Assembly (NCBI GenBank): GCA_049517415.1
Contig: JBEKSC010000001.1
Location: forward strand, 159,146 to 223,145
From: Candidatus Bathyarchaeia archaeon
Lineage (GTDB): Archaea; Thermoproteota; Bathyarchaeia; 40CM-2-53-6
Reading direction: 5' to 3'
DNA length: 64,000 nucleotides
Both the position numbers and the translations under genes were made by a program. Positions 13,256 through 30,922 of this stretch are shown piece by piece (position 1 is the stretch's first letter; every line of letters starts with the position of its first letter). The notes beneath the pieces were generated by a model. It was given only the letters and a program-made list of their open reading frames with translations, did no database searches and had not been told where the DNA came from.

Positions 13256-14197
13256 ATGGTAGCAATACTAAATGCTGCGGCGATCACAGGCTTGATCGCA
13301 TCAATGATTGAGCTTAGTGTCCCAATGGCTTTCGCTGCGCTGGGAGAGGTTATAAGCGAACGGGGGGGCGTCATCAACCTTGGAACAGAAGGTGTGATGC
13401 TTGTCGGCGCGATTTCCGCCTTCTCCGTAGGTTTCTTCATGCACAATGACTTACTCGGAATATTGCTAGGCGCATTCGCTGGCGCGTTAATGGGCCTTCT
13501 TCTGGCCTTTGTGTCGGTATCTTTGAAGCAAGACCAGATCCTAACGGGGCTTGGAATCTACTTTCTCGGCCTAGGTCTTTCTGGTTTTCTCTACGATGTG
13601 TTGTTCAGCAACATAGGCTCTACAATAAGAATTGAGGGCCTTCAGAAATTGCCGATACCTATCCTATCACTAATCCCTATCTTAGGAGATTCCCTCTTCT
13701 CTCAAGACATAATCGAGTACCTGGCTTTCGTGAGCCTAGTGATAGTTATCCTTGTGATTGGCCGCACGACATTCGGGCTTAACCTTAGGGCCGTCGGCGA
13801 AAACCCGTCAGCCGCAGATACATTAGGCGTCAACGTGAGCAAAATTAAGTACATCGCCGTAATTGCGGGAGCAGCATTGGCGGGGATCGGGGGCGCTTAC
13901 CTAGCAATTTCCTCCCATGCATTTCAGGCAGAGAACATAACCGCGGGTAGAGGTTTCATCGCAGTTGCGATGGTCTACTTCGGCAAATGGAAGCCGGCGA
14001 GAGCATTTTTCGGAACTTTTCTGTTTGGAGCGGCATACCTGCTTGGCTCATTCTTTCAAGTTGTGGGCTCCATGGTTCCATATTACTTTCTTCTGATGGT
14101 ACCATACATTATGACGCTAATCATCCTCGTGATAATAGCCAGAGGCGCTAGACAGCCCTCAGCTCTCGGCGTCCCGTACACCAGAGAGAGCGGATAA
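13256..14197 (+). CDS. Nucleoside ABC transporter permease 2
   Basis: SERGGVINLGTEG, AVGENP, GRGFIAVA, PSALGVPY. Confidence 0.93.
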   Translation: MVAILNAAAITGLIASMIELSVPMAFAALGEVISERGGVINLGTEGVMLVGAISAFSVGFFMHNDLLGILLGAFAGALMGLLLAFVSVSLKQDQILTGLGIYFLGLGLSGFLYDVLFSNIGSTIRIEGLQKLPIPILSLIPILGDSLFSQDIIEYLAFVSLVIVILVIGRTTFGLNLRAVGENPSAADTLGVNVSKIKYIAVIAGAALAGIGGAYLAISSHAFQAENITAGRGFIAVAMVYFGKWKPARAFFGTFLFGAAYLLGSFFQVVGSMVPYYFLLMVPYIMTLIILVIIARGARQPSALGVPYTRESG

Positions 14198-19979: not shown

Positions 19980-21017
19980 TCATGCAATCAGTGGGCCTGA
20001 GGATGGTGGGTTGGCCTCGAAGGCGTCAATCATGGCGTGAACGTTATCCGCCAAGGGATAGAGGATTGGGCAGGTGCATCCGGTGGAGTTGTACTCTGCA
20101 ACTTTCTTGAGGCAATCGTCTGCGGTTCCGCTGGCTGTGATAAGTCGAACGAGTTCATCATCTACCAACTGCTTGGCCTTTTCCAAGCCACCCGGTTTGG
20201 CAGGCCAACCCCCCAAAGCAGATTTTACTTCTTCAATCAAGGATTCCTTCACACCGCTGGCTTTGGCGATGTGGGGTTGCTGCCCCAGATACTGGGCGAC
20301 CAGCGGCCGCGCGCTATCAATAGCTTTGTCAGCGTCGTCGTCCAGCGAACACACAATGAGCTGAGGTCTGTCAATGGCCTCGAAACTTCGGCCTCTCTTC
20401 GCCGCACCGATTTTGAGATGTTCTAAGGCTTGGCGATTGTAGTTCGGGGAAACTAAGTAATTCAGCAGAAGACCGTCAGCGATCTCGCCGGTTAGTTCAA
20501 TCATATCCCAACCAGTGGCACCTATGTAAATTGGGATGTTACGGGGCGTAGAAGGATCGCCGTAAACAACATCTAGTCGTATGTCCCGTACTTTCACGAA
20601 CTCTCCCTCGAACGTGACGTTCTCCATCCGGAAGAGGCGCTGGAGAACAGTAACGTACTCTCGCATTGCTTTCAGCGGTTTCTTTCGTTCGATCCCAACC
20701 TTCGACGCTAGCGGGTCCCACCAAGCACCCACCCCGAGCAAGCTACGACCGTCAGACAGTTCATCGAGAGTTAGAAAAGACACCGCAGTCAGGGCCACGT
20801 TCCGCGTCCAATTGTTTATCACCCCGGTTCCAAGTTTGATTTTGTTGGTGACGGCCGCGATAGCCGCCAAGGGCGTGAGGGCGTCTCGTGCGAGGCGTGA
20901 TTCGGCGTGCCAGATGGCTTCGAACCCTTTCTGTTCAGCATATTGCGCGAGCTTCATCTCTTCGCGAATTCTGTGCTTATCTTGAAGATATAACGCAATT
21001 CTTCGTTTGTTTACCAC
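19980..21017 (-). CDS. LLM-class (Mer-like, probably F420-dependent) oxidoreductase
   Basis: [39 protein letters not shown]; likely start GTG 21017 (ORF track extends to 21083). Confidence 0.88.
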
Positions 21018-21174
21018 TTTTTTCGCTTCCCGTTCAAATTGGCTGCAACTATAAGGGCTTGCTGACCTTAACACTTTCCTCACTTATGGAGTAAACCATA
21101 AAGTTCACCCCCAATCGTGGAGAAAAACGACTACCACATATACTCGCGCGCATGTGAAGCGTTAACGATGAAAT

Positions 21175-21312
21175 ATGCCAGTGGAGAGCGATAACATAAC
21201 CGCCATAAGGGTTAGCTTTCAGGTTGCCGCCATCGTAAATGCGCTAGTCAAAGCCAAGAAACTTCACTCGGCCGACGAACTCTTACGACAAGTTTTGGGA
21301 GTAGGTGCCTGA
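21175..21312 (+). CDS. Ribbon-helix-helix-like DNA-binding microprotein (45 aa, not in ORF track)
   Basis: MPVESDNITAIRVSFQVAAIVNALVKAKKLHSADELLRQVLGVGA*; alternating TAIRVS strand then two helices with S-x-D-E-L-L-R. Confidence 0.6.
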   Translation: MPVESDNITAIRVSFQVAAIVNALVKAKKLHSADELLRQVLGVGA

Positions 21313-21314
21313 AA

Positions 21315-21749
21315 ATGGACGACGCAGCACTCAGCCTGAAATATTTCGGTTGCCTCGCCGTAGACCGTTCGGTGCTCGAAGGTAGCCGACCAGTTGTGGA
21401 AACTCAAATCTCCGAATTCGAGAGCCGTGTCACATCAACTAAGACCGGTATCCGTGAATGGGAGAAAGTCAGGGAGGGCAGGGGAAACCACCTAGCTGAA
21501 GTTGAAGGGAAAATTCAGGAAGCGAAATCCCAGGGCTTGACCTCGGAGGATCCGCAGCTTGCCGTTCTGCTCGAAGAAAGGGATCGTTGCGAGGCGCTTT
21601 GCGGCGGCCCCGATAGCGTTATGATGAGTCTACAATCTGACCTTGCGCACGAGTTAGACGCCCTTGAATATTGGAAATCGAGACTCCGGAAAATCGAATT
21701 CTTGGAGAAGCAAGCTGCTCAGAAAACGAAGGGGGGTAAGAAGCCATGA
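21315..21749 (+). CDS. Hypothetical coiled-coil protein
   Basis: 144 aa, heptad-rich; stop overlaps next start (ATGA). Confidence 0.7.
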   Translation: MDDAALSLKYFGCLAVDRSVLEGSRPVVETQISEFESRVTSTKTGIREWEKVREGRGNHLAEVEGKIQEAKSQGLTSEDPQLAVLLEERDRCEALCGGPDSVMMSLQSDLAHELDALEYWKSRLRKIEFLEKQAAQKTKGGKKP

Positions 21750-22093
21750 GCCCAGACGATTCCGATGAAGACCAAGAGGAATCATCCGACGAAGCCACAT
21801 TAGGCATACGAATCATCGACGCCTCAACCGATGAGGCTGAGGACGAGCTGAAATCCTTACGGAAACAGGCAATCGAAAACCTAGTGAAAATGAGATATCC
21901 ATTAGATCCCAGAATTGAGAGCGCCGTCGAGCACCCTAACCGAACCCACGTTGCTGGATCCCACGCTAGAAGCACGAAACCTCTGACGGAAGATAACCGC
22001 CGCGGATTCTACATCACATTCGACAAAGCCACAATTGAGGCTGAAATGCAGAAGATTCGGCCAAGTCACACCCCTGGAAAACGAATCATTTAG
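21746..22093 (+). CDS. Hypothetical protein, acidic N-terminus
   Basis: 115 aa ORF coupled to the upstream gene, GGGGGGT SD-like sequence. Confidence 0.65.
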   Translation: MSPDDSDEDQEESSDEATLGIRIIDASTDEAEDELKSLRKQAIENLVKMRYPLDPRIESAVEHPNRTHVAGSHARSTKPLTEDNRRGFYITFDKATIEAEMQKIRPSHTPGKRII

Positions 22094-22103
22094 GTGGGCT
22101 CTG

Positions 22104-22382
22104 ATGGATGAACCAACAACCTGTACGTGTAACCCGCCACGGTGGGACGGAATCCATTACGCCTCCTGTCCCATGAGCAATTACCTGTTTCGACATAGGC
22201 AGGAAATTCAGCGAACGGGCCGAGTTGATGGGGAAACCCCTGGGTACCAACCATCGAAGGATACGCCTAGACTCTACACCCAGCCCTCGAATTTGGGGGT
22301 TAGCTGGCCCTTCGTCGCTAAGTCAGCTCAACGCAGAGGCCCGAATTACCGTGAACCATTCCGACCAAGGCGTTCCCATTGA
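22104..22382 (+). CDS. Hypothetical protein with CxC...HxxxC motif
   Basis: MDEPTTCTCNPPRWDGIHYASCP; AGGTG SD upstream; TTGA overlap with next ORF. Confidence 0.5.
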   Translation: MDEPTTCTCNPPRWDGIHYASCPMSNYLFRHRQEIQRTGRVDGETPGYQPSKDTPRLYTQPSNLGVSWPFVAKSAQRRGPNYREPFRPRRSH

Positions 22383-22648
22383 GGGTTTCCAAAGTCAATG
22401 ACGCGATTTCTACTGCGGGTGCTTCTTCCCCCGCTACAATGCAGCCTGAGACTGAGGGAACCGAAATTAATTTTCGAAAATCATCCTTAGCCACCTTGGA
22501 GAGAAGATTTCAGAGTCAAACACGAACGCTTTACCATTCGACTCGGCAGACTCGAAAATATGGCGAATGGTGGGTCATATTGCAGAAGCTTCAGGTTACG
22601 TATCGCCTGATTGTTGAGGCTACGAGGCCGGAGGGTGACTCGGGCTGA
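22379..22648 (+). CDS. Hypothetical protein
   Basis: 89 aa ORF in a translationally coupled run. Confidence 0.5.
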   Translation: MRVSKVNDAISTAGASSPATMQPETEGTEINFRKSSLATLERRFQSQTRTLYHSTRQTRKYGEWWVILQKLQVTYRLIVEATRPEGDSG

Positions 22649-22743
22649 CGAAAGAAAAAGCGGGGCCCATTACGAGTGGGCCACCGACAGTAGTCGCAAA
22701 GGAGACCAGTGGTGACGTTCCAACTAAGGTTTCTGATGCTGAG

Positions 22744-22959
22744 TTGATGCGTTTCCTTGAACTTGAAATTTACCGTCAGGATCGAGAAGATCATGATGGA
22801 ATAGTTTTCGAGATTCAGCGCCGATTAACGAAGGCTCTAGGTGTTCCGCCTAATCTCCAAGTCTTGGACCGCTACTTGGATAGTTTGCTGAATGTCCCTG
22901 AGAAGCAGGCATACCGGCGGGTGCTCAAGTTTTTTCGAGAGCATCCGGCAATTGAATAG
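22744..22959 (+). CDS. Hypothetical helical protein (may start at CTG 22645)
   Basis: 71 aa ORF; frame open back to a CTGA overlap with the previous stop. Confidence 0.55.
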   Translation: MMRFLELEIYRQDREDHDGIVFEIQRRLTKALGVPPNLQVLDRYLDSLLNVPEKQAYRRVLKFFREHPAIE

Positions 22960-23524
22960 TCCCTGCAGGGTTACCGTGCACGGCACCCATTTCGGCCTTA
23001 ACGGCCAGGTTCGGCTACGTTTTCGGTCTGGGCATTGCGGTCGCTGCGACGACTACTCCAAGAGGTACGGTGAGTTGCCTGATTCCATGATTCCTCCCGG
23101 GGCTCGGAACCGCGTCAAAGTTGAACGTTCCAAACTGGGTACATGGTTATTCTACCCTAACGGAAGCGTGGTGTTCTCGACGGCTTTGCGGGGCCTACTG
23201 AGCCATGAGGCTTGGAGTATTTTGGCGGATGACCATGCGGAGATTTTGCGTTTAGATTTCACGCTGCCTCGAAGCTTCTGCACTCCAGCGAAGTTGCGGC
23301 GGCTTAGGATGGTTAAGGGGTGCCGACTCGAATACTGGTGGGGAACCGTGGTTTTCGGGGATCGAAGCGATCCTCGCAACATCGAAATTGAGTTCTCCAA
23401 AGTGGTTTTAAGGCTCATTCGAGAGGGTGGGCCGCGTCTTTTCAAAAAAGCAATCAGAAACCGAATCGCCCTGTTCTGGGCTTATTTTCAGGAAATTTAC
23501 GCTCGGGGCTTAATTGAAATTTGA
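22952..23524 (+). CDS. Hypothetical element protein
   Basis: Likely TTG start overlapping the upstream stop; RVTVHGTHF and GDRSDPRNIEIE motifs. Confidence 0.6.
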   Translation: MNSPCRVTVHGTHFGLNGQVRLRFRSGHCGRCDDYSKRYGELPDSMIPPGARNRVKVERSKLGTWLFYPNGSVVFSTALRGLLSHEAWSILADDHAEILRLDFTLPRSFCTPAKLRRLRMVKGCRLEYWWGTVVFGDRSDPRNIEIEFSKVVLRLIREGGPRLFKKAIRNRIALFWAYFQEIYARGLIEI

Positions 23525-23900
23525 AGAAACGGTGAAACGATTTAGGGAGTTGCCGATTGGTTTGTGGGCGAAATCGCCGCGGAACATGACGTTCGGGATA
23601 CCCCTCTGCAAACGGTTTAGTGAGTAAATATGGCTCTGACCGTTCAAACAAAATTGAGTTCTGAGGGGGTCGGAAACCATGTCGCCAGCTTAAGCTTCCC
23701 AGCTAGGTATGTTGGTGTTGGTTTCTGTGGGTGATGTTGGTTCCTATTCTTTCCTGTATGGTATTCTCATTATTTTCTATACGTTGCTTTATGGTTTGGT
23801 GGTTGAGGTTTCGGAATTAAATGCCCGTTTCTCGGGGTGCGTTCGCCAGCATAAACCCGTGTGAGGCCAGCGATAAGCCTGCGAGTAAACCGTTAGGTGG

Positions 23901-24224
23901 TCACATTCGTTCTAGCAGTGCTTGGAAAACCTGTTGCGTTGTAATCGGCATTTCTGGAAGAAACTGATTGATCGCTTCCTTCACGAGCTTAACATATTCT
24001 GGGGGCGAACGAAATTCAATCTTGAACCGTTTCCCTACCTTGGGCCCGAACCTTAATTGAACGAGAGCCCGCTTGTCTTCTGGTATCCCGGGTTTCACAG
24101 ACTCCAAGATCTTCGCGGCCCACTCATTCAAAACCTCACTTGTAAGGCCCTCCACCATGTCCTGCAGATCACGTTCAAGCTCGTCAAAACCGTCGACATC
24201 CATGTGAATCAAACACTTCGCCAC
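23901..24224 (-). CDS. Hypothetical protein
   Basis: 107 aa ORF with TATA-like TTGATATAT about 25 nt upstream. Confidence 0.6.
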   Translation of the reverse strand: MAKCLIHMDVDGFDELERDLQDMVEGLTSEVLNEWAAKILESVKPGIPEDKRALVQLRFGPKVGKRFKIEFRSPPEYVKLVKEAINQFLPEMPITTQQVFQALLERM

Positions 24225-24320
24225 ATAGAAGCAGCCCCAGCAGGATATATCAAAACGAGAGATAAGTGAAGGTAAACACCCTAGCCCTAAACCATAAAGT
24301 TCTGTAGAGAGAATAATCAG

Positions 24321-24509
24321 CTACACGTCAGGGTTACGGACACCGAAATAACATTGCCTTGAACCATGCCCATATTCCCCACCAGCCGTATGAGAAATCA
24401 GAAAGTAAGCATACTTCCGTAGCCCATGGCGATTCTTACGCCATACCATCAACAGATCACCGAGTAGCCCACACTTCCCGCAATACGCGCCCCTCCGAAC
24501 CAAAACCAA
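24321..24509 (-). CDS. Small zinc-finger-like protein (CxxC...H...C)
   Basis: YCGKCGLLG...YAYFLISH...RQCYFG, a pattern typical of small archaeal MGE proteins. Confidence 0.6.
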   Translation of the reverse strand: MVLVRRGAYCGKCGLLGDLLMVWRKNRHGLRKYAYFLISHTAGGEYGHGSRQCYFGVRNPDV

Positions 24510-24779
24510 CCTGTTTTCACGCCTTAACCAATGTGTGTACGAACGCTTGTGGTTTCTGATTCTATGGTTTGGTAAGCCGTAATTTGAGGGATCACATCAG
24601 TATTCTCAGGCGACTAAGGTTTGAGTTCAGGTCGATGCTCTGAATGTGGTGGATCATTGGATTCAAGGAACCGTAAGGTTTGCACTTCATGTTATTCTGA
24701 GCGAATTCAAGGCTCGGGTGGCGACAGCTTAGATTAAGGACAGAAACCTTTGAAGCGGGATCAGGCCTAGTATTCCGCT

Positions 24780-24902
24780 ATGCCCGAACGTTCATTGAAG
24801 CTTGAGAAGCCGGTTCAATGCAGTGAATGCGGAGCAATCGTTACGCTCCGAAAGAATCTTGTTGGCCGGAAATGTAGGGATTGCGCAGACAAGAAGGCTT
24901 AG
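24780..24902 (+). CDS. Zinc-finger microprotein (40 aa, not in ORF track)
   Basis: MPERSLKLEKPVQCSECGAIVTLRKNLVGRKCRDCADKKA*; CxxC-x14-CxxC. Confidence 0.55.
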   Translation: MPERSLKLEKPVQCSECGAIVTLRKNLVGRKCRDCADKKA

Positions 24903-25135
24903 GTTATTCTTTCAGCCCTGTACCAATGGGATACCCCGTAAACTGAGGCTAAGTCGTGGATTTGTTTAGCGATCCCCATATCATCTAGAATCCAAACTGA
25001 TTGGGTGCTCCTTTTTCGGATTTCAATGTTTGCGGCTCCCAATAATTTCCATAGGCGCCTGTAGAATTGCATGTGTCGGCTTGCAGGCTCAGCCGGAATG
25101 TCATAGTCCACAACGAACCATTCTATTCCAGTCAA
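24899..25135 (-). CDS. Stand-alone Cas2/VapD/PaaX-middle-domain-like protein
   Basis: FVVDYDIP first strand and TQSVW motif, 78 aa ferredoxin-like size; GGAGG SD upstream. Confidence 0.6.
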   Translation of the reverse strand: MTGIEWFVVDYDIPAEPASRHMQFYRRLWKLLGAANIEIRKRSTQSVWILDDMGIAKQIHDLASVYGVSHWYRAERIT

Positions 25136-25317
25136 CGTTCTAGTTCCTCCAAGACGTTACAGGTATAACGCAGGCGGGTAATAGGTGTTACGTGTCAAGT
25201 GCATTTACATTAACCGTAACCTAAACCATGAAGCTCACTGGGGCGTCTACGGCTAGAACCGTAACAAGTATAACGTTCCTTACTCGCCTTGGTTGTCAGA
25301 GTATTGCGTTTTATGGT

Positions 25318-25740
25318 TTAGTGGCGTTGTGTGGTTCCGTTTACGGTATGCTGTTTGGAACTTGGATGTGATTTCGATTTCCGTCTATTGTAAGTAAGTG
25401 TTACGGTGCCGCTTGCCCCGATTCCCAATGGCTTTGCTGACAGTTCCCCTGAAATTGTTATCTGTGAGAGTTCGAAGTTATCGGGGATTGCTTTTTCATA
25501 TTTCGCAGCGATTGCTCGTGGGATAAGTTCCCGCAGGATTTCTTTACGGGGTCTCCTCCGGCCTGCTGTAAGGCTAAAGTTACCGACCTCGCTCAGACTC
25601 ATGACATTCAGTTTGTGTTCCAGTACCTGTTTCTGAACCTGTTTTGAGACTTTAAGGGGTTCGACCTTCAAAATGTCATCTTCGGTCAGAGTAAACAATG
25701 CTGCATTCTCTTTGCGATGTTTCCTGGGCACAGTTGTCAA
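25318..25740 (-). CDS. Hypothetical protein with Pepco/Trypco-like C-terminal domain
   Basis: FELSQITISGELSAKPLGIGASGTVTLTYNR resembles the strand-hairpin-strand signature of peptidase co-occurring domains. Confidence 0.5.
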   Translation of the reverse strand: MTTVPRKHRKENAALFTLTEDDILKVEPLKVSKQVQKQVLEHKLNVMSLSEVGNFSLTAGRRRPRKEILRELIPRAIAAKYEKAIPDNFELSQITISGELSAKPLGIGASGTVTLTYNRRKSKSHPSSKQHTVNGTTQRH

Positions 25741-26179
25741 CTCGACTAGATTTCAAGACCGTTAGGGTATTTCATTTATGGTTTACTTGTCTAGCTTAGA
25801 TGATTGAATCATTCGCATTCAACATTCAAACCTGCATGCGCCCGTGAATGCTGGGATTTCTGGGAATCAGCCGCCGAAATCTAGGGACCCATCCGCCTAC
25901 CCACCAGCCCCCACCAAGCGGTGACACACCACAAAACCCACACACCATCCTGATCACGTGATCCTTCACCCGCCTGCACGCGTGATACCCCGCACCCTCC
26001 ATGATCCAACGTCGCCAAGACGACACCTAAGAAAGAATAAACAACAACACAATATGATAGAAATTATCTTATCTTACTTTCTTTTTTTCCCCTACTGCTT
26101 TCTTCATGTTTAAGGGTACTCTGCGATGTAAGTTGATTTTATGGTTTGCTCGCTGTTAACGTGGCAAATACGCCGTATG

Positions 26180-26677
26180 CTACTCTGGGATTCCCAGATA
26201 CTTCTTAAGAAATTGTCTGATTTCCTCCAACTTGACGCCGAGGACTGGGGGTGCTCCGATCGAAAGAAAGAGGGCATCGCCTGGTAGCTCATCCTTCTCG
26301 CCGCTGGACATGAAGGCGTCCAGTTTCTCCAGTTCGTCTATGATGCCATCTAGCCCCGTGCGAATTTCCCTCGGAAGGAAGAAAGTCCCCCCAACTGACA
26401 CAAGTTTCTGATAATGTTCCTCATAGGCCTTCGAGGTGTCGGCTAGGAGCGCGCGTGCTTCTTGGATGGTTGCATCCACTGAAACTTCGCCAACACTCAT
26501 TTTCAATGACTCCATGGCACCCACGAACCGGAGGAAATCCGGTGTGAGAACCAGCTCTCGGAAGTATTGGCGGGATCGCTGTCGTTGCAAGAAATATGCT
26601 TGAACTAACACGGTCAGGAGGGCTCCAATCCCAAGGTACCCGAGAATTTGAAGGAGCGACTGAACATCTACTTCCAC
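26180..26677 (-). CDS. Hypothetical protein with single N-terminal TM and helical domain
   Basis: LLQILGYLGIGALLTVLVQAYFL TM followed by an amphipathic helical region. Confidence 0.7.
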   Translation of the reverse strand: MEVDVQSLLQILGYLGIGALLTVLVQAYFLQRQRSRQYFRELVLTPDFLRFVGAMESLKMSVGEVSVDATIQEARALLADTSKAYEEHYQKLVSVGGTFFLPREIRTGLDGIIDELEKLDAFMSSGEKDELPGDALFLSIGAPPVLGVKLEEIRQFLKKYLGIPE

Positions 26678-26819
26678 GAAAGGTCAGCAGTAACCGAATT
26701 AGCGTCTAGCCTTAATCAATCATGCTCCCTAACTGACCGCGAGCTTAGGGAAGAATAGGGGTCCGACCGCCGCTTGGCAGAATTTCTTCATGGGATGGAG
26801 TTCTACGAAAAACTCCCGG

Positions 26820-28271
26820 TCATTTTCGATTAAGGTCCTGCCTGCGACCGCATTTAAGACAGAATAGGCTTCCACTAGGAAGTCTATGGCCACAGTTGAG
26901 ACAGAACTGAACTTTATTACGTCGCTTGAGGGTCACAGCACCTACTGAGACGATTGCAATAATGATGACAGCGCTGGCAGGCAGGATGGTACCAGGATTC
27001 AGCGACCACTCGGCATGAATTGTCATAGGAGCATTAACGGTTATCAGAGAGGACCCGTCAGGTCGTGGGCTTCCGGTGTAGTCACCTCCCCATCCACCAA
27101 AAATAGACCGTACACCCAATGCCCCCAGTATGCCTTCAGCTTGGATTGAGGTAGGCCTCACGCCAATTTTTACGTCGATGCCCGCGTCATACCAACCTGA
27201 GCCAAAGGTTGATCCCAGAGTTGAGGTGACTGTCACCAAGTACTGCTTAACGTAGACGGCTGAGAGTGACATGTTCTGATCGGCAGCGAATCCGCTCGCT
27301 GTATAGGTCCCGTCAGTCCAGCCTTCTAGGTAATATCGTTCGCCACCACTAATTGGAACGGTCAACTGCGCTTGCGGCGCAACCTCAGAACCTTCTACGT
27401 ACCATCCGTTGCCCATCGCAGAACCAACTGAGGAAGTTACACTAACGTAGAACCATGGCCAGAGGCTCTGCCCTTCAGCCTTAATGGGTAGACCGCTTCC
27501 TGCTAACCAATGATTATTCTCACCAGTGACACTTTCAACTCCGTAGGGAAAACCACCATTGTAAGTGGCGCTTGTTACACCGTAGCAGCATAATGACGCA
27601 GCGGCGGACGCTTGATGCCAAACTCCAGTGCTGTCGCGGTAGGACAGGTTGCGGAACTCCACAGGACCGAGTACGTTGTCCGTCCAATACGTCTGCGCCG
27701 ATTCAGCCACGGCATCTGGCCCGGAGCCTCCTGAGTCGCCTACGCTGAGGTCGACCTGTCCGAGTTGTTGATCGTTTGCGAACGCCGACCAAATCGTTCC
27801 CGTGCTCGCAAGCGAGAACTTGACCCATGTCCCATTCATTCCAGCGGTCCGACCTTCGTTTCCCAAGAATCCACCCGTATTTTCTTTAGCTGTCCCTGGA
27901 AGGAAGTACTCCCAAAACAAGCTCGGATGTCCGCTGTTATACTGGGGATTCATCATGTACCCTGCCTGTATGAATGCATCGTTCGGTAGGTCAACGCCTA
28001 CCCAGTAGGAGTCGTCAGTGTCAACATGATTGAGTTTCTGATCCAAAATCCTGACTTCGACACTCGCCCCAGTTATTGGCTGCCCGAATTTATCTGCGTA
28101 ACCGCTGTTGCTTTCTCCCCACGCTCCAACTTGAAACCAGTATGTGTTGGACATCGTCGTTTCCGCCATTCCAGAGTGAGATGGTAGATGAGGCGTTAAG
28201 CTAAAGGAACGAACTGTAGGCACTAAGGGTAGAGAGGTAAGAACCAGCAGTAAGAGTAGTCCCTGTCTCAT
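26820..28271 (-). CDS. Surface protein: signal peptide, G1 glutamic-peptidase-like domain, beta repeats, TM, double zinc ribbon
   Basis: SYWVGVD..FIQAGY and AVAES..GPVEF motifs; two G-x-GWY repeats; C-terminal FCLNCG..FCLKCG. Confidence 0.7.
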   Translation of the reverse strand: MRQGLLLLLVLTSLPLVPTVRSFSLTPHLPSHSGMAETTMSNTYWFQVGAWGESNSGYADKFGQPITGASVEVRILDQKLNHVDTDDSYWVGVDLPNDAFIQAGYMMNPQYNSGHPSLFWEYFLPGTAKENTGGFLGNEGRTAGMNGTWVKFSLASTGTIWSAFANDQQLGQVDLSVGDSGGSGPDAVAESAQTYWTDNVLGPVEFRNLSYRDSTGVWHQASAAASLCCYGVTSATYNGGFPYGVESVTGENNHWLAGSGLPIKAEGQSLWPWFYVSVTSSVGSAMGNGWYVEGSEVAPQAQLTVPISGGERYYLEGWTDGTYTASGFAADQNMSLSAVYVKQYLVTVTSTLGSTFGSGWYDAGIDVKIGVRPTSIQAEGILGALGVRSIFGGWGGDYTGSPRPDGSSLITVNAPMTIHAEWSLNPGTILPASAVIIIAIVSVGAVTLKRRNKVQFCLNCGHRLPSGSLFCLKCGRRQDLNRK

Positions 28272-28282
28272 TCGCCACTACG

Positions 28283-29137
28283 CTACTCTTGAGGAGTGCC
28301 ACATTTGTTGCAGAACTTCGACCCGGTAGGAAGAGCTTTTCCACAATTTAGGCAAAATTGTCCATTAGAGGTGCTGCTCTTGGCCCGACTTTTTCTGACT
28401 TTAGGTCTAGACCTAACAACGTACAATGCAGCTATAATCACGATGACCACAACGACAATTGCCACGATAATCGTGGGGTCTACACCAAAGTTTAACCCTG
28501 TGACTGCTTGCGTTATTTGAGTTGAGCTAACCGTTTGCGTTGCCGTCAGCGCCACCTGATTCGTAACCATGTTGTAGACCGTAGAAGTTTGTTCTTGATT
28601 GAAAGTAGCGACTAGAACAAATGGGGTCGTGACTTTAGGGACGCTTGCGCCTAGTGTAGTGGATGAAAAGATGAAATAGTACCAGCCGGTTGGTGGGTTT
28701 TTCCAATCCAATGAATACGTTGAGATTAAACCATATACCGCAACTTCGGCCGCATACGGTATATTGCCGCATAGTGAATTACTGAACGCATAAAACTGAT
28801 TCTGGTTCATAATGTAGAAGTCGATTCTGCTGCTTGGCGGTCCAATTGTGCCGGTAACCTCTATGGTGCCTGGGTCAACGGTTATGTTCCATGGATCATA
28901 AGTGCAAACACGTCCTGCGTTACTGGCTAATATGTCAGTCGTGCTAATGAAAGTGTTTGACGATACAATCGTTTGGGTCGTAGTTCCGACAGTGTTCGTG
29001 GAATAGACAGCTGATGTGAAGAGACCAGTCGTTGTCATAACATTTGTTTCGGTCGTAAATGTCTGACTCGCACTAGATGGAATTGAAGCTATTGCAAACA
29101 CGATGGATAGAATCAAAAGAAGCGTGCCAAATCGCAA
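28283..29137 (-). CDS. Surface protein: signal peptide, Thr-rich linkers, beta-sandwich, TM, double zinc ribbon
   Basis: IDFYIMNQNQF..GWYYFIF core; C-terminal FCLNCGKALPTGSKFCNKCG. Confidence 0.75.
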   Translation of the reverse strand: MRFGTLLLILSIVFAIASIPSSASQTFTTETNVMTTTGLFTSAVYSTNTVGTTTQTIVSSNTFISTTDILASNAGRVCTYDPWNITVDPGTIEVTGTIGPPSSRIDFYIMNQNQFYAFSNSLCGNIPYAAEVAVYGLISTYSLDWKNPPTGWYYFIFSSTTLGASVPKVTTPFVLVATFNQEQTSTVYNMVTNQVALTATQTVSSTQITQAVTGLNFGVDPTIIVAIVVVVIVIIAALYVVRSRPKVRKSRAKSSTSNGQFCLNCGKALPTGSKFCNKCGTPQE

Positions 29138-29457
29138 AAGAATCCGAATACTGGCTCAACAGATTTCCATTTAACACTTTACATTATAACGTATGCCATC
29201 GGACTGGTGATGATGACCTGCTACCTATCGGTGGCTGTAGGTTTCGCAGCGGTTTTTTATAACGTATGGTCTCTCGCTCAAGACTAATGATTACGTTGCT
29301 GATGCTCTTTTCAGTAAATAGTCCCATATTTCAGTTCGGTTGACGATTTCGATCTATGTCTTGTGGTTAGTTATTTCACTTTGTGTCGATTTGCACTTGA
29401 CAGACCGAATGCCGCAGCGTCTGCTTGAAGGTTCTAGCTTTGCACGGAACTAAGGTA

Positions 29458-30639
29458 CTATTTCTTTTGGCGGTTCTTGGCCTTCTGCTTGGTGGGTTTC
29501 CCTGCTTCGAAGTAGGATAATTTTTTTCGCAGTTCAGCGATTTCCTGGTCACGAGCAGTTAACTGCCTTTCAATTTTCGGCAGTTTGCCCAGTATTCCGT
29601 CAACAACTTCGTTCTGTTGGGTGGCGAGGCGTTCTATTTTCGTGAGTTGTTCGTCCCGCTTTGCGTCTGTGTTTACGCGTTCTTGCTGTAGGCGTTCAAT
29701 CTCCCTTTCGAGCTTACTTGTTCGACCGTTGCCCTCCCAAGCCTTGCGTAATTGTTCGTGAACATGGTCCTCATTCTCCCAGAGTTTGTTGTAGCCCTGC
29801 TCGGAAAATTGGCTATGACCTATGGTGAACTTGCGAACGTCCCATTCTACGCCTTGCGTTCCGGCGTATGTGAACCAAGCATCCCGAATTTCGTGGCACC
29901 CGACACCCTTCATATCGGTAAGTCCGGCTCGACTTCTCGCGCGTCGCCATTCCGCCTGTAGATTGTAGTCCTGAACCATATTGCCCCGCGTATTCGTGAA
30001 GGGGAGCCTTCCGCCTTTTCGAAGATAGTTTTCGATTAGATTTCGGGGAATTAGCGAATAGAATTTCCTTTTCGCGTTCTTTCTAGGCGGATGGATGGCC
30101 TTGACGTAAGGCTTCTTGGTGGTTAATTGCTCGCTTACGTCCTTAGTAATGTCGGGGCGAGTATTCCATTTGATGAAGCTAACTTCTCCCATGGGTGCAT
30201 AGGTGAAGATTGTATAGATTGTTTTGTACGGTTCTGGACAGTGGTTGATGATCTCCCTTATTTGATCTAACGTGAGTTCCTTGACATCTCCCTCAGATTT
30301 CACAGTGATGCGCTCAGAGGGAAGAAAGACTCCGTGATGTTGCAAGAAACTGCGGAACGATTTGATCTGCATTTTGATTGAGCCAGTTGGAAACTCAAAC
30401 GCTTGGTCCCGTAGTTCTTGCCATAATCCTCCCAAGTCGCCTTTCATGCTTTTGCAGTGCGCTAGAAATTCAGTCGGTGTTTCACGACGCTTCTCAAGAA
30501 GCCTTTGCAATTGATACGCATAGTAAGTGGCTGTTGCGTTGGAGCCCTTCAGGAGTTTGCTATACCAGGGTTTGATTAACGGGTCTTGGATAAACGGTTC
30601 AATCTTCGCTATTCTAGCGGTCGTATGGTTTGCCTTCAG
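29458..30639 (-). CDS. Tyrosine recombinase/integrase with C-terminal coiled coil (ORF track start 30510; frame open further 5')
   Basis: HEIR (HxxR), IGH...GY catalytic region, PRK; upstream in-frame PWYSKLLKGSNATATYY matches the usual archaeal integrase N-terminal pattern. Confidence 0.85.
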   Translation of the reverse strand: MKANHTTARIAKIEPFIQDPLIKPWYSKLLKGSNATATYYAYQLQRLLEKRRETPTEFLAHCKSMKGDLGGLWQELRDQAFEFPTGSIKMQIKSFRSFLQHHGVFLPSERITVKSEGDVKELTLDQIREIINHCPEPYKTIYTIFTYAPMGEVSFIKWNTRPDITKDVSEQLTTKKPYVKAIHPPRKNAKRKFYSLIPRNLIENYLRKGGRLPFTNTRGNMVQDYNLQAEWRRARSRAGLTDMKGVGCHEIRDAWFTYAGTQGVEWDVRKFTIGHSQFSEQGYNKLWENEDHVHEQLRKAWEGNGRTSKLEREIERLQQERVNTDAKRDEQLTKIERLATQQNEVVDGILGKLPKIERQLTARDQEIAELRKKLSYFEAGKPTKQKAKNRQKK

Positions 30640-30669: not shown

Positions 30670-30922
30670 TCTCGCTATTCTTGAAGGTAAAGAGCTACCC
30701 GTTTCATGGTTCGAATACTACCTCATAGTTGAAGATTAGCATTACATATGTGAAACTTCTGATTTCTGACTTGAGGAGACCTTCCGCTACCGGTTTCTGA
30801 TACGTGAAAATGTCTGTTATGTACCGCAACTCATGAACGGTTAAGAATGAGCTAATGGAACTCTTTCTGGGGTCCCGATCACTCGGAGTTCATCCGGTCC
30901 AGGCCTAGAGGTGTCAGGTTGA

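Follow-up and report, generated by a model that had tools for sequence, protein, structure and literature searches.

The 64,000-bp stretch of a Candidatus Bathyarchaeia genome that we analyzed (contig JBEKSC010000001.1, positions 159,146 to 223,145; hereafter the window) contains a 9.7-kb integrated element, which interrupts a gene for a luciferase-like monooxygenase at its 5′ end, and a 5-kb region of small genes within that element carries an array of a 10-bp motif, AAACCATAAA, in both orientations. The array is real and, among the genomes searched, is particular to this element. Judging from its sequence and setting, we hold with about even confidence that the motif is the core of an operator that overlaps promoters and would be bound by a ribbon-helix-helix (RHH) protein of the element, the candidate binder. 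An earlier, sequence-only reading had taken the copies for sites of a cassette- or shufflon-like recombination system served by the element's integrase, with operator or iteron sites for the RHH protein as its fallback; the evidence favors the operator part of that fallback.

A Noncoding Box Clustered in One Element

Six exact copies of the motif (plus strand at 21093 and 24289; minus strand at 23788, 25310, 25775, and 26138) and two copies with one mismatch (24561, minus; 25223, plus) were found just where they had been reported, and the rest of the window holds no exact copy. The whole genome, of 2.65 Mb, has nine exact copies, six of them within the 5-kb stretch of the element. As a control for choosing the motif post hoc, we examined 954 half-overlapping tiles of 5.1 kb, eight of which carry any 10-mer at least five times at a spacing of more than 60 bp; one of the eight is this element, and at least three others are dispersed repeat families. 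The pattern YAAACCATAAA gave 60 matches across 59 genomes of the family, and none of the 58 others has two matches inside 10 kb. A 15-bp pattern matched at least 119 stretches, 80 of which were examined; 76 of these have one copy, three have two, and one has three, and none shares a protein.

Together the copies define a box of about 13 bp with the consensus (A/C)(G/C)(T/C)AAACCATRRA, in which eight positions are invariant, two are conserved in seven of the eight copies, and three are degenerate. An identity of 15 bp between the copies at 21092 and 24288 was confirmed, as was, by reading the sequence, the match of the copy at 25222 to that at 21092 at 15 of 17 positions. All eight copies lie in noncoding DNA (P of about 6 × 10−5 for a noncoding share of 30%), except that the copy at 25310 overlaps two bases of the stop codon of a 140-amino-acid gene. 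Each of the six gaps from 21017 to 26179 carries at least one copy (P = 0.054 taken alone). The copies and the genes among which they lie are the following.

21093–21102, plus strand: motif copy 1 (exact), flanked by the RHH gene and the leftward promoter of the host gene; the only copy with a dyad
21175–21312, plus strand: gene for a 45-amino-acid RHH-like protein, the candidate binder; first gene of the left operon
21315–22648, plus strand: four abutting orphan open reading frames (ORFs; 144, 115, about 92, and 89 amino acids) without Pfam matches
22645–23524, plus strand: frame-split gene for a protein with a fold like that of TATA-binding protein (TBP) or Rep_trans; last gene of the left operon
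23788–23797, minus strand: motif copy 2 (exact), where the left operon and the 107-amino-acid gene converge, in the gap that separates their 3′ ends
23901–24224, minus strand: 107-amino-acid gene with a weak PHROG neck-protein match (E = 0.016)
24289–24298, plus strand: motif copy 3 (exact), 22 nt after the stop codon that ends the 62-amino-acid gene and 65 nt before the 107-amino-acid gene
24321–24509, minus strand: ORF for a 62-amino-acid CxxC protein
24561–24570, minus strand: motif copy 4 (one mismatch), 51 nt before the 62-amino-acid gene
24780–25135, both strands: convergent, overlapping pair of genes for a 40-amino-acid zinc ribbon (plus) and a 78-amino-acid protein (minus), the latter Cas2/VapD-like by eye only
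25156–25274, no strand assigned: three GTAAC-N4-GTTAC-like boxes (25156, 25178, and 25261), a conserved upstream signature of the 78-amino-acid gene
25223–25232, plus strand: motif copy 5 (one mismatch), flanked on both sides by the boxes of the 78-amino-acid gene
25310–25319, minus strand: motif copy 6 (exact), sharing two bases with the stop codon of the 140-amino-acid gene
25318–25740, minus strand: 140-amino-acid orphan gene without a match in 200 other genomes of the class
25775–25784, minus strand: motif copy 7 (exact), 34 nt, the host TATA-to-start distance, ahead of the TTG codon of the 140-amino-acid gene
26138–26147, minus strand: motif copy 8 (exact), 32 nt after the stop codon that ends the 165-amino-acid gene
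26180–29137, minus strand: cargo without intergenic motif copies, namely the 165-amino-acid protein and two membrane proteins of 483 and 284 amino acids that carry zinc ribbons at their C termini

The Box as a Putative Operator

We propose that the box of about 13 bp, which recurs in every noncoding gap of the small-gene region, is specific to the element and would be bound by a protein, and that it overlaps or mimics the core of a promoter, that is, the transcription factor B (TFB) recognition element (BRE) and the TATA element. The most likely binder would be the 45-amino-acid RHH protein, acting as a repressor that would keep the transcription units of the element and its antisense promoters quiet during residence in the chromosome. 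The two-armed copy 1, located between the divergent promoters of the left end, stands where an autoregulated switch would be expected, and excision would leave the leftward promoter pointing at the integrase gene. Binding by a protein, the RHH protein as that binder, and a repressive effect are steps that we infer.

The motif falls into a class of sequences, AA[ACG]NCATWW, that appears to mark host promoters. In a survey of 524 host upstream regions, taken from crude gene calls, this pattern peaked 30 to 39 nt before ATG codons: 9 of its 18 sense matches fell in one of 14 bins, the same bin in which TTAAA peaks, and its antisense matches were flat. Seven of the eight copies score 5.3 to 7.7 bits on a host BRE-TATA matrix, and a score of 5 is reached by 0.5% of random intergenic 14-mers. 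Copies 7, 4, and 1 precede genes by 34, 51, and 72 nt, respectively. Another genome (G016) has, as read from its sequence, a copy with one mismatch about 40 nt before a small RHH-like ORF. Finally, the 10-base identity of the copies exceeds that among the listed host promoters of the class, which points to a sequence-specific binder.

Several observations weigh against an operator for the RHH protein. Confident host promoters score 6.4 to 9.6 bits, above the copies, and 82 places between 20980 and 26800 reach 5 bits, so the matrix is weak. No promoter signal was detected downstream of the copies (P = 0.71), and just one of the eight has a real gene at the host distance of 30 to 39 nt; copies 2, 3, and 5 face antisense or noncoding DNA, and several copies lie at 3′ ends of genes. 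The box is asymmetric, unlike the palindromic box of the RHH repressor aCcr1. Copy 1 has the sole dyad among the eight (TTATGG-N6-CCATAA, 21084–21101), and the other seven lack a partner half-site (4 to 6 matches of 11, the random range). A simple operator would also leave unexplained that 15 of 22 bases downstream of copies 2 and 3 are alike (P = 0.0008) and that the three plus-strand copies have 13 of 21 extra bases in common (P = 0.0016). As for the binder, the 45-amino-acid protein gave feature matches in the Atlas of 0.90 (a cluster with RHH_1 on 20% of its members) and 0.89 (DUF3950), which are a lead only, and no match in Pfam or PHROG; for its gene the search found no homologue beyond itself, and hence no relative in which co-occurrence with the box could be followed.

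Boundaries of the Element and Its Target Gene

The ends of the element are marked by an 8-bp core present at 20980–20987 and again at 30679–30686. Genome G014, in which the site is empty, is 94% identical to the window over the sequence extending rightward from 30679, and there runs straight into its monooxygenase gene; conversely, its identity to the monooxygenase gene of the window extends only to about 20990. Thus the element interrupts the first codons of the monooxygenase gene, leaves the original start stranded at 30707, and provides a new start at 21017 together with a promoter, for which a promoter-like score of 6.9 bits at 21049–21062 is seen in the leftward direction. It follows that motif copy 1, which had been placed at the left end, is no end at all: the left junction is the core 105 bp further left. 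The features concerned are these.

20980–20987, no strand assigned: left attachment core of 8 bp, inside the first codons of the monooxygenase gene; identical 8-mer at 30679–30686, empty site in G014
20988–21062, minus strand: 5′ end and promoter of the host monooxygenase gene as supplied by the element; GTG start at 21017
29458–30630, minus strand: integrase-like gene; upper end approximate, homology-based start near 30620, first in-frame ATG, GTG, or TTG at 30510
30622–30631, minus strand: weak motif copy (two mismatches, 9.5 bits) at the expected integrase start; significance doubtful
30679–30707, minus strand: right attachment core (30679–30686) and the first codons that the host gene had before the insertion, now stranded (ATG at 30707)

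Of 23 monooxygenase loci in congeners other than the genome itself, 17 were examined. The monooxygenase gene and a gene for a 2Fe-2S protein are adjacent in ten of these, other inserts separate them in six, and one locus lies at a contig edge. In G003 the same codons have been hit by an element whose integrase is 58% identical and whose cargo is different, with a 25-bp direct repeat at its ends, and G002 has an integrase fragment at the site. The start of the monooxygenase gene is, in fact, an insertion hotspot in the genus (loci L023, L051, L043, L053, L042, L041, and L056): two congeners have elements of the same integrase family at the same codons, and five more have other inserts, of 0.9 to 9.6 kb, between the two host genes.

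The integrase gene has no ATG, GTG, or TTG at the position where its homologues start. Among 13 homologues the residues H-x-x-R, H, and K are invariant and Y is nearly so, which we take to be the catalytic residues of the tyrosine-recombinase consensus; the position of the usual first catalytic arginine is a glycine (APMGE) in the homologues that cover it. The family gives no match to PF00589, and one homologue bears the name integrase at the Joint Genome Institute (JGI). An integrase encoded on a 10.9-kb contig (P0002) is 81% identical. Viral collections held no relatives of the integrase and none of the TBP-fold protein. The element itself was found in metagenome runs from peat, wetland, and soil, and no RNA run was listed as containing it. 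We also observed, in the host genome (G000:C5:60900-66100) and in one metagenome locus (L065:1800-7300), AT-rich regions with many ATATAT-type repeats adjoining an integrase gene.

Recombination Sites as an Alternative

Unlikely in our judgment, yet the alternative that fares best, is that the copies are one-armed recombination sites, comparable to those of shufflons or dif modules, at which the integrase or another tyrosine recombinase would invert or excise modules in a system that by now is locked or seldom active. In its favor, orientation alternates over the first six copies, which enclose modules of one or two genes; the arms of the copy 1 dyad are 6 bp apart; an inverted repeat of 32 bp and 78% identity is formed by copies 2 and 3; and the plus-strand copies share their extra bases. 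According to published accounts, shufflon sites likewise consist of one conserved arm and one free arm (PMC9045228), known invertible segments end in repeats of 10 to 20 nt (PMC5903667), and conjugative plasmids of Sulfolobus rearrange at direct-repeat motifs (PMC4872121). An integrase without a canonical start where its homologues begin could be what locks such a system.

Most of the comparative evidence runs the other way. The attachment cores at 20980 and 30679, where the integrase would act, do not contain the motif. The elements at the same site in G003 and G002 lack AAACCATA, the two longer metagenome loci (L063 and L065, with integrases of 50% to 54% identity) lack the array, and the module of the 40- and 78-amino-acid genes and the 107-amino-acid gene occur elsewhere without it. 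No such array was thus found in the elements of the same site or the same family that were scanned. The 8-bp flanks differ among the copies on both sides; no possible inversion would exchange gene ends, and all copies stand between complete ORFs. With the first six copies alternating, the inverted pairing of the sequence-only reading is not unique; the strongest pair, 23788/24289, encloses the 107-amino-acid gene. Boxes of the 78-amino-acid gene lie on both sides of copy 5, which places this copy inside a regulatory region rather than at a module edge.

A single arrangement was seen in all four runs and both assemblies available for comparison. At least 97% of the words of the stretch are contained in 20 runs, four of which were examined as contigs (depths of about 10, 14, 27, and 63), and in all four the 21- to 27-kb stretch lies on a single contig with zero differing letters. 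None of three listed joints and none of the 24 loose ends shown (of 67) fall in the motif region in these four runs, whose contigs drop rare variants. No excision junction appeared in the contigs either, so the result on rearrangement has no positive control. Among eight metagenome loci with relatives of the integrase, two JGI contigs are the same element (100% identity over 10,797 and 20,987 bp), and of the six others the five that were scanned, only two of which extend for several kilobases, show no array; the runs and the JGI assemblies may share their origin with the window. In sum, the proposal of a cassette or shufflon system for the integrase found no support: the attachment cores lie elsewhere and lack the motif, related elements lack the array, and no rearranged form was found in the four runs and two assemblies.

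Other recombination sites and mobile ends were tried as explanations and rejected. A survey of the most frequent 9- and 10-mers in 18 integrase regions (14 from relatives, this element, and three from the same genome) gave no comparable array outside the element; a cluster of ACCTAAACC on contig C18, considered as a similar array, is partly coding and unconvincing. An attachment site is ruled out by the cores at 20980 and 30679 and the empty site in G014. The best dif-like palindrome of the genome shares 9 of 11 bases with the motif as a possible Xer/dif half-site, yet it lies inside an ORF and is found in none of 22 congeners. The 99-bp segment folds no better than shuffled sequences (z = −0.6), and the orientations are mixed, against an attC-like hairpin or an integron array with attC sites in one orientation; target duplications of at most 2 bp (nine pairings at four offsets) speak against the ends of transposons or miniature inverted-repeat transposable elements. 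Integrase arm-type sites would be represented just by copy 1 and one weak copy near an attachment core. In the parts of the literature at hand, short archaeal attachment sites are described and the term arm-type is never used (PMC8371274), and a survey of inversions reports none in its six archaeal samples (PMC5903667).

The Putative TBP-Fold Gene and Other Possible Readers of the Box

A doubtful alternative is that the box is read by the TBP-fold protein (22645–23524), as a private TATA-binding factor or as a replication or origin-binding protein derived from Rep_trans. The gene changes frame by one base at a run of six T residues, 22930–22935 (TTTTTTCGA), and its C-terminal 182 codons are open from a GTG at 22976. 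Relative to a homologue of 324 amino acids encoded by a single ORF (P0016), the upstream frame corresponds to residues 5 to 90 (41% identity) and the downstream frame to residues 105 to 280 (43%). The letters of the T run are identical in all contigs examined, and so the frame change is no one-off sequencing error; the split gene is either a pseudogene or one read by a programmed +1 shift at UUU-UUU-CGA, and UUU-CGA presumably resembles known +1 frameshift sites. The apparent start of the gene, a CTG that overlaps the preceding stop codon (22645–22648), is a possible noncanonical start.

The fold is suggested by structure prediction. An AlphaFold model of the 182-amino-acid part (predicted local distance difference test score, 81.6) has two repeats of strand, helix, strands, and helix. 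In a Foldseek search of the PDB all four matches with E values of 0.001 or less are TBPs, the best with an E value of 3 × 10−4, a template-modeling (TM) score of 0.31, and a root-mean-square deviation (rmsd) of 10. VIA-align gave a Z score of 5.0 for TBP (rmsd 4.3, 123 residues aligned) and 4.4 for a Rep_trans initiator (rmsd 4.9, 157 aligned), and a fold search with full-length P0016 also placed TBP first (E = 0.005). The 182-amino-acid protein is not among the nine PF00352 matches of the genome and has neither a Pfam match nor one to PF02486; with the alignment of the family, a sequence search of the PDB gave no match and a search of the Atlas no usable match. A predicted complex with a host TFB core scored 0.00, a value that carries no weight either way. 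Invariant in the family is G-D-x-S-x-P...E (seven sequences, one a fragment); an invariant tyrosine is absent, which makes nicking activity doubtful.

That fold searches rank TBP first and that the motif is TATA-like argue for the TBP-fold protein as a binder. Its homologues occur in 2 of 400 other genomes of the class, the integrase element of G003 and G046, and the G003 element carries two sites like the downstream half of copy 1. Against it, the fold match is weak, in that a Z score below 8 may be owed to a common arrangement and the scores do not separate TBP from Rep_trans; in this element the gene carries a frameshift; neither G003 nor G046 has a comparable array; and in G019 the G003 site recurs next to unrelated genes. 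That one element should combine a TBP-fold protein with a TATA-like box is nonetheless a coincidence that merits a test. The G003 sites are hairpin-like and end in ATAAAGTTCAACYCCCA (L033:12412-12445 and 13542-13575; L228:789-805 in G019), and in G003 they bracket a pair of genes, one for a helix-turn-helix protein and one nucleotidyltransferase-like. In G046 (L072:1786-4707) the homologue directly precedes genes that by eye resemble those for small and large terminase subunits.

It is improbable that the copies are simply basal promoters, sense and antisense, of one class read by a host TBP or TFB paralogue with no binder from the element. Such a host promoter subclass does exist, and TBP is encoded in the genome at four two-repeat loci, with a further fragment, and TFB at four loci. 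However, the seven listed host promoters of the class differ from one another while six copies are identical over 10 bp, and a promoter signal downstream of the copies is absent. We note separately that the host genome contains two families of dispersed repeats that look like tRNA 3′ ends in reverse, clustered and in both orientations (G000 contigs C3, C4, C8, C12, C37, C39, and C50), and that some of the TBP and TFB genes sit inside these clusters.

A long shot, and a version of the proposal that the TBP-fold protein reads the box, is that a divergent TATA-binding factor of the element's own, possibly made by programmed +1 frameshifting, would read a private BRE-TATA variant, the eight boxes being element promoters. 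On this model, to which we assign a slim chance, the system would be an archaeal counterpart of phage-encoded sigma factors, with promoters that would be on only when the factor is made. Lastly, a chance or compositional artefact, for which the post hoc choice and A-richness of the motif could be invoked, has almost nothing to recommend it in view of six of nine genomic copies in 5 kb, a mere 8 tiles in 954 that reach five copies, and no cluster in the 58 other genomes of the family.

Other Genes of the Element

The gene flanked by the copies at 25310 and 25775 had been labeled Pepco-like, a label that neither Pfam nor a named PHROG upholds. The 144-amino-acid ORF gave only two marginal matches (E = 0.003 and 0.009) among 104 other genomes. 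Homologues of the 107-amino-acid gene in G016 lie next to a tRNA-like sequence, with no motif array. The pair of 40- and 78-amino-acid genes is kept in G006, G004, and G016 (L074, L075, and L076), again with no array, and GTAAC-N4-GTTAC-like boxes lie upstream in G006 (two) and G004 (one), with none in G016 by the same pattern; the 78-amino-acid family is present in 12 of 104 other genomes of the order. The reverse of the motif is not enriched after stop codons, and we rejected a terminator on this ground. The two zinc-ribbon membrane genes (26835–29205) recur in runs X13 and X15 as a second, diverged copy set in a different context, and the larger has a paralogue of 51% identity on contig C29.

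If the operator reading is true, the element represents a compact regulon, of a 45-amino-acid protein and a 13-bp box, on the mobile element of an uncultured archaeon, a finding that would be useful and not surprising. Through its insertion the element also supplants the promoter and the first codons of a host gene, and inserts have repeatedly hit this site in the genus. Were the box instead a recombination site, it would belong to an archaeal shufflon-like system, and were it read by the TBP-fold protein, an archaeal element would possess its own basal transcription factor and promoter code. A literature search, outside whose reach most subscription papers lie, returned no account of this element, and none of a shufflon in archaea or of an alternative TBP encoded by an element.

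Comparison with Known Systems

In anatomy, the feature fails to match shufflons, dif modules, integron arrays, and transposons with terminal inverted repeats. The dif modules of Acinetobacter are bracketed, one or two genes at a time, by alternating sites; in each of these pdif sites two arms flank a 6-bp spacer, and the sites match the dif site of the host. Here just one of eight copies has a dyad, and no conserved dif-like site matching the motif was found in the host genus. The shufflon of IncI plasmids, with its Rci recombinase and sfx sites, is similar in having short one-armed repeats in both orientations and a tyrosine recombinase on the element; as described, its sites have a perfectly conserved 7-bp core and a 12-bp arm (19 bp in all) and lie beside rci, and it swaps the 3′ ends of pilV to give mixed populations (PMC9045228). 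In our element, by contrast, conservation covers 10 to 13 bp, the copies enclose whole genes, the integrase lies 3.3 kb away with sites of its own, and a single arrangement was seen. In pNOB8-type plasmids of Sulfolobus a short motif stands at module borders, as here, and deletions at repeats have been seen there (PMC4872121), whereas we observed no such deletion.

As an integrated element, ours resembles the cryptic elements of Thaumarchaeota, which are small, bear an integrase and a short attachment repeat, lack viral or conjugation hallmarks, can target protein-coding genes, and had their boundaries set by way of an empty site (PMC6563490). The 14 insertions described there are in 3′-distal regions of genes, whereas here the first codons are targeted and a new 5′ end and promoter are supplied; that account, in the parts relevant here, has no repeated internal box (PMC6563490). 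The TBP-fold protein, for its part, invites comparison with the Rep_trans and archaeal Rep-Arvir initiators, which are described as sharing the TBP fold (PMC13107129). Like them it combines a putative TBP-like fold with an archaeal mobile element and a noncoding stretch directly downstream of the gene, and unlike them it has no invariant catalytic tyrosine, a frameshifted gene, and a downstream hairpin no better than that of shuffled sequence when the stretch was folded.

The closest parallel to an operator for the RHH protein is aCcr1, an RHH repressor of Sulfolobales that is reported to act through a 9-bp box at many promoters and to have homologues on plasmids and viruses (PMC9976878). The aCcr1 box is palindromic, located between the TATA element and the start codon, and distributed genome-wide (PMC9976878), whereas the box described here is asymmetric, is itself TATA-like, and is confined to one element. 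The element most likely works like a small RHH regulon.

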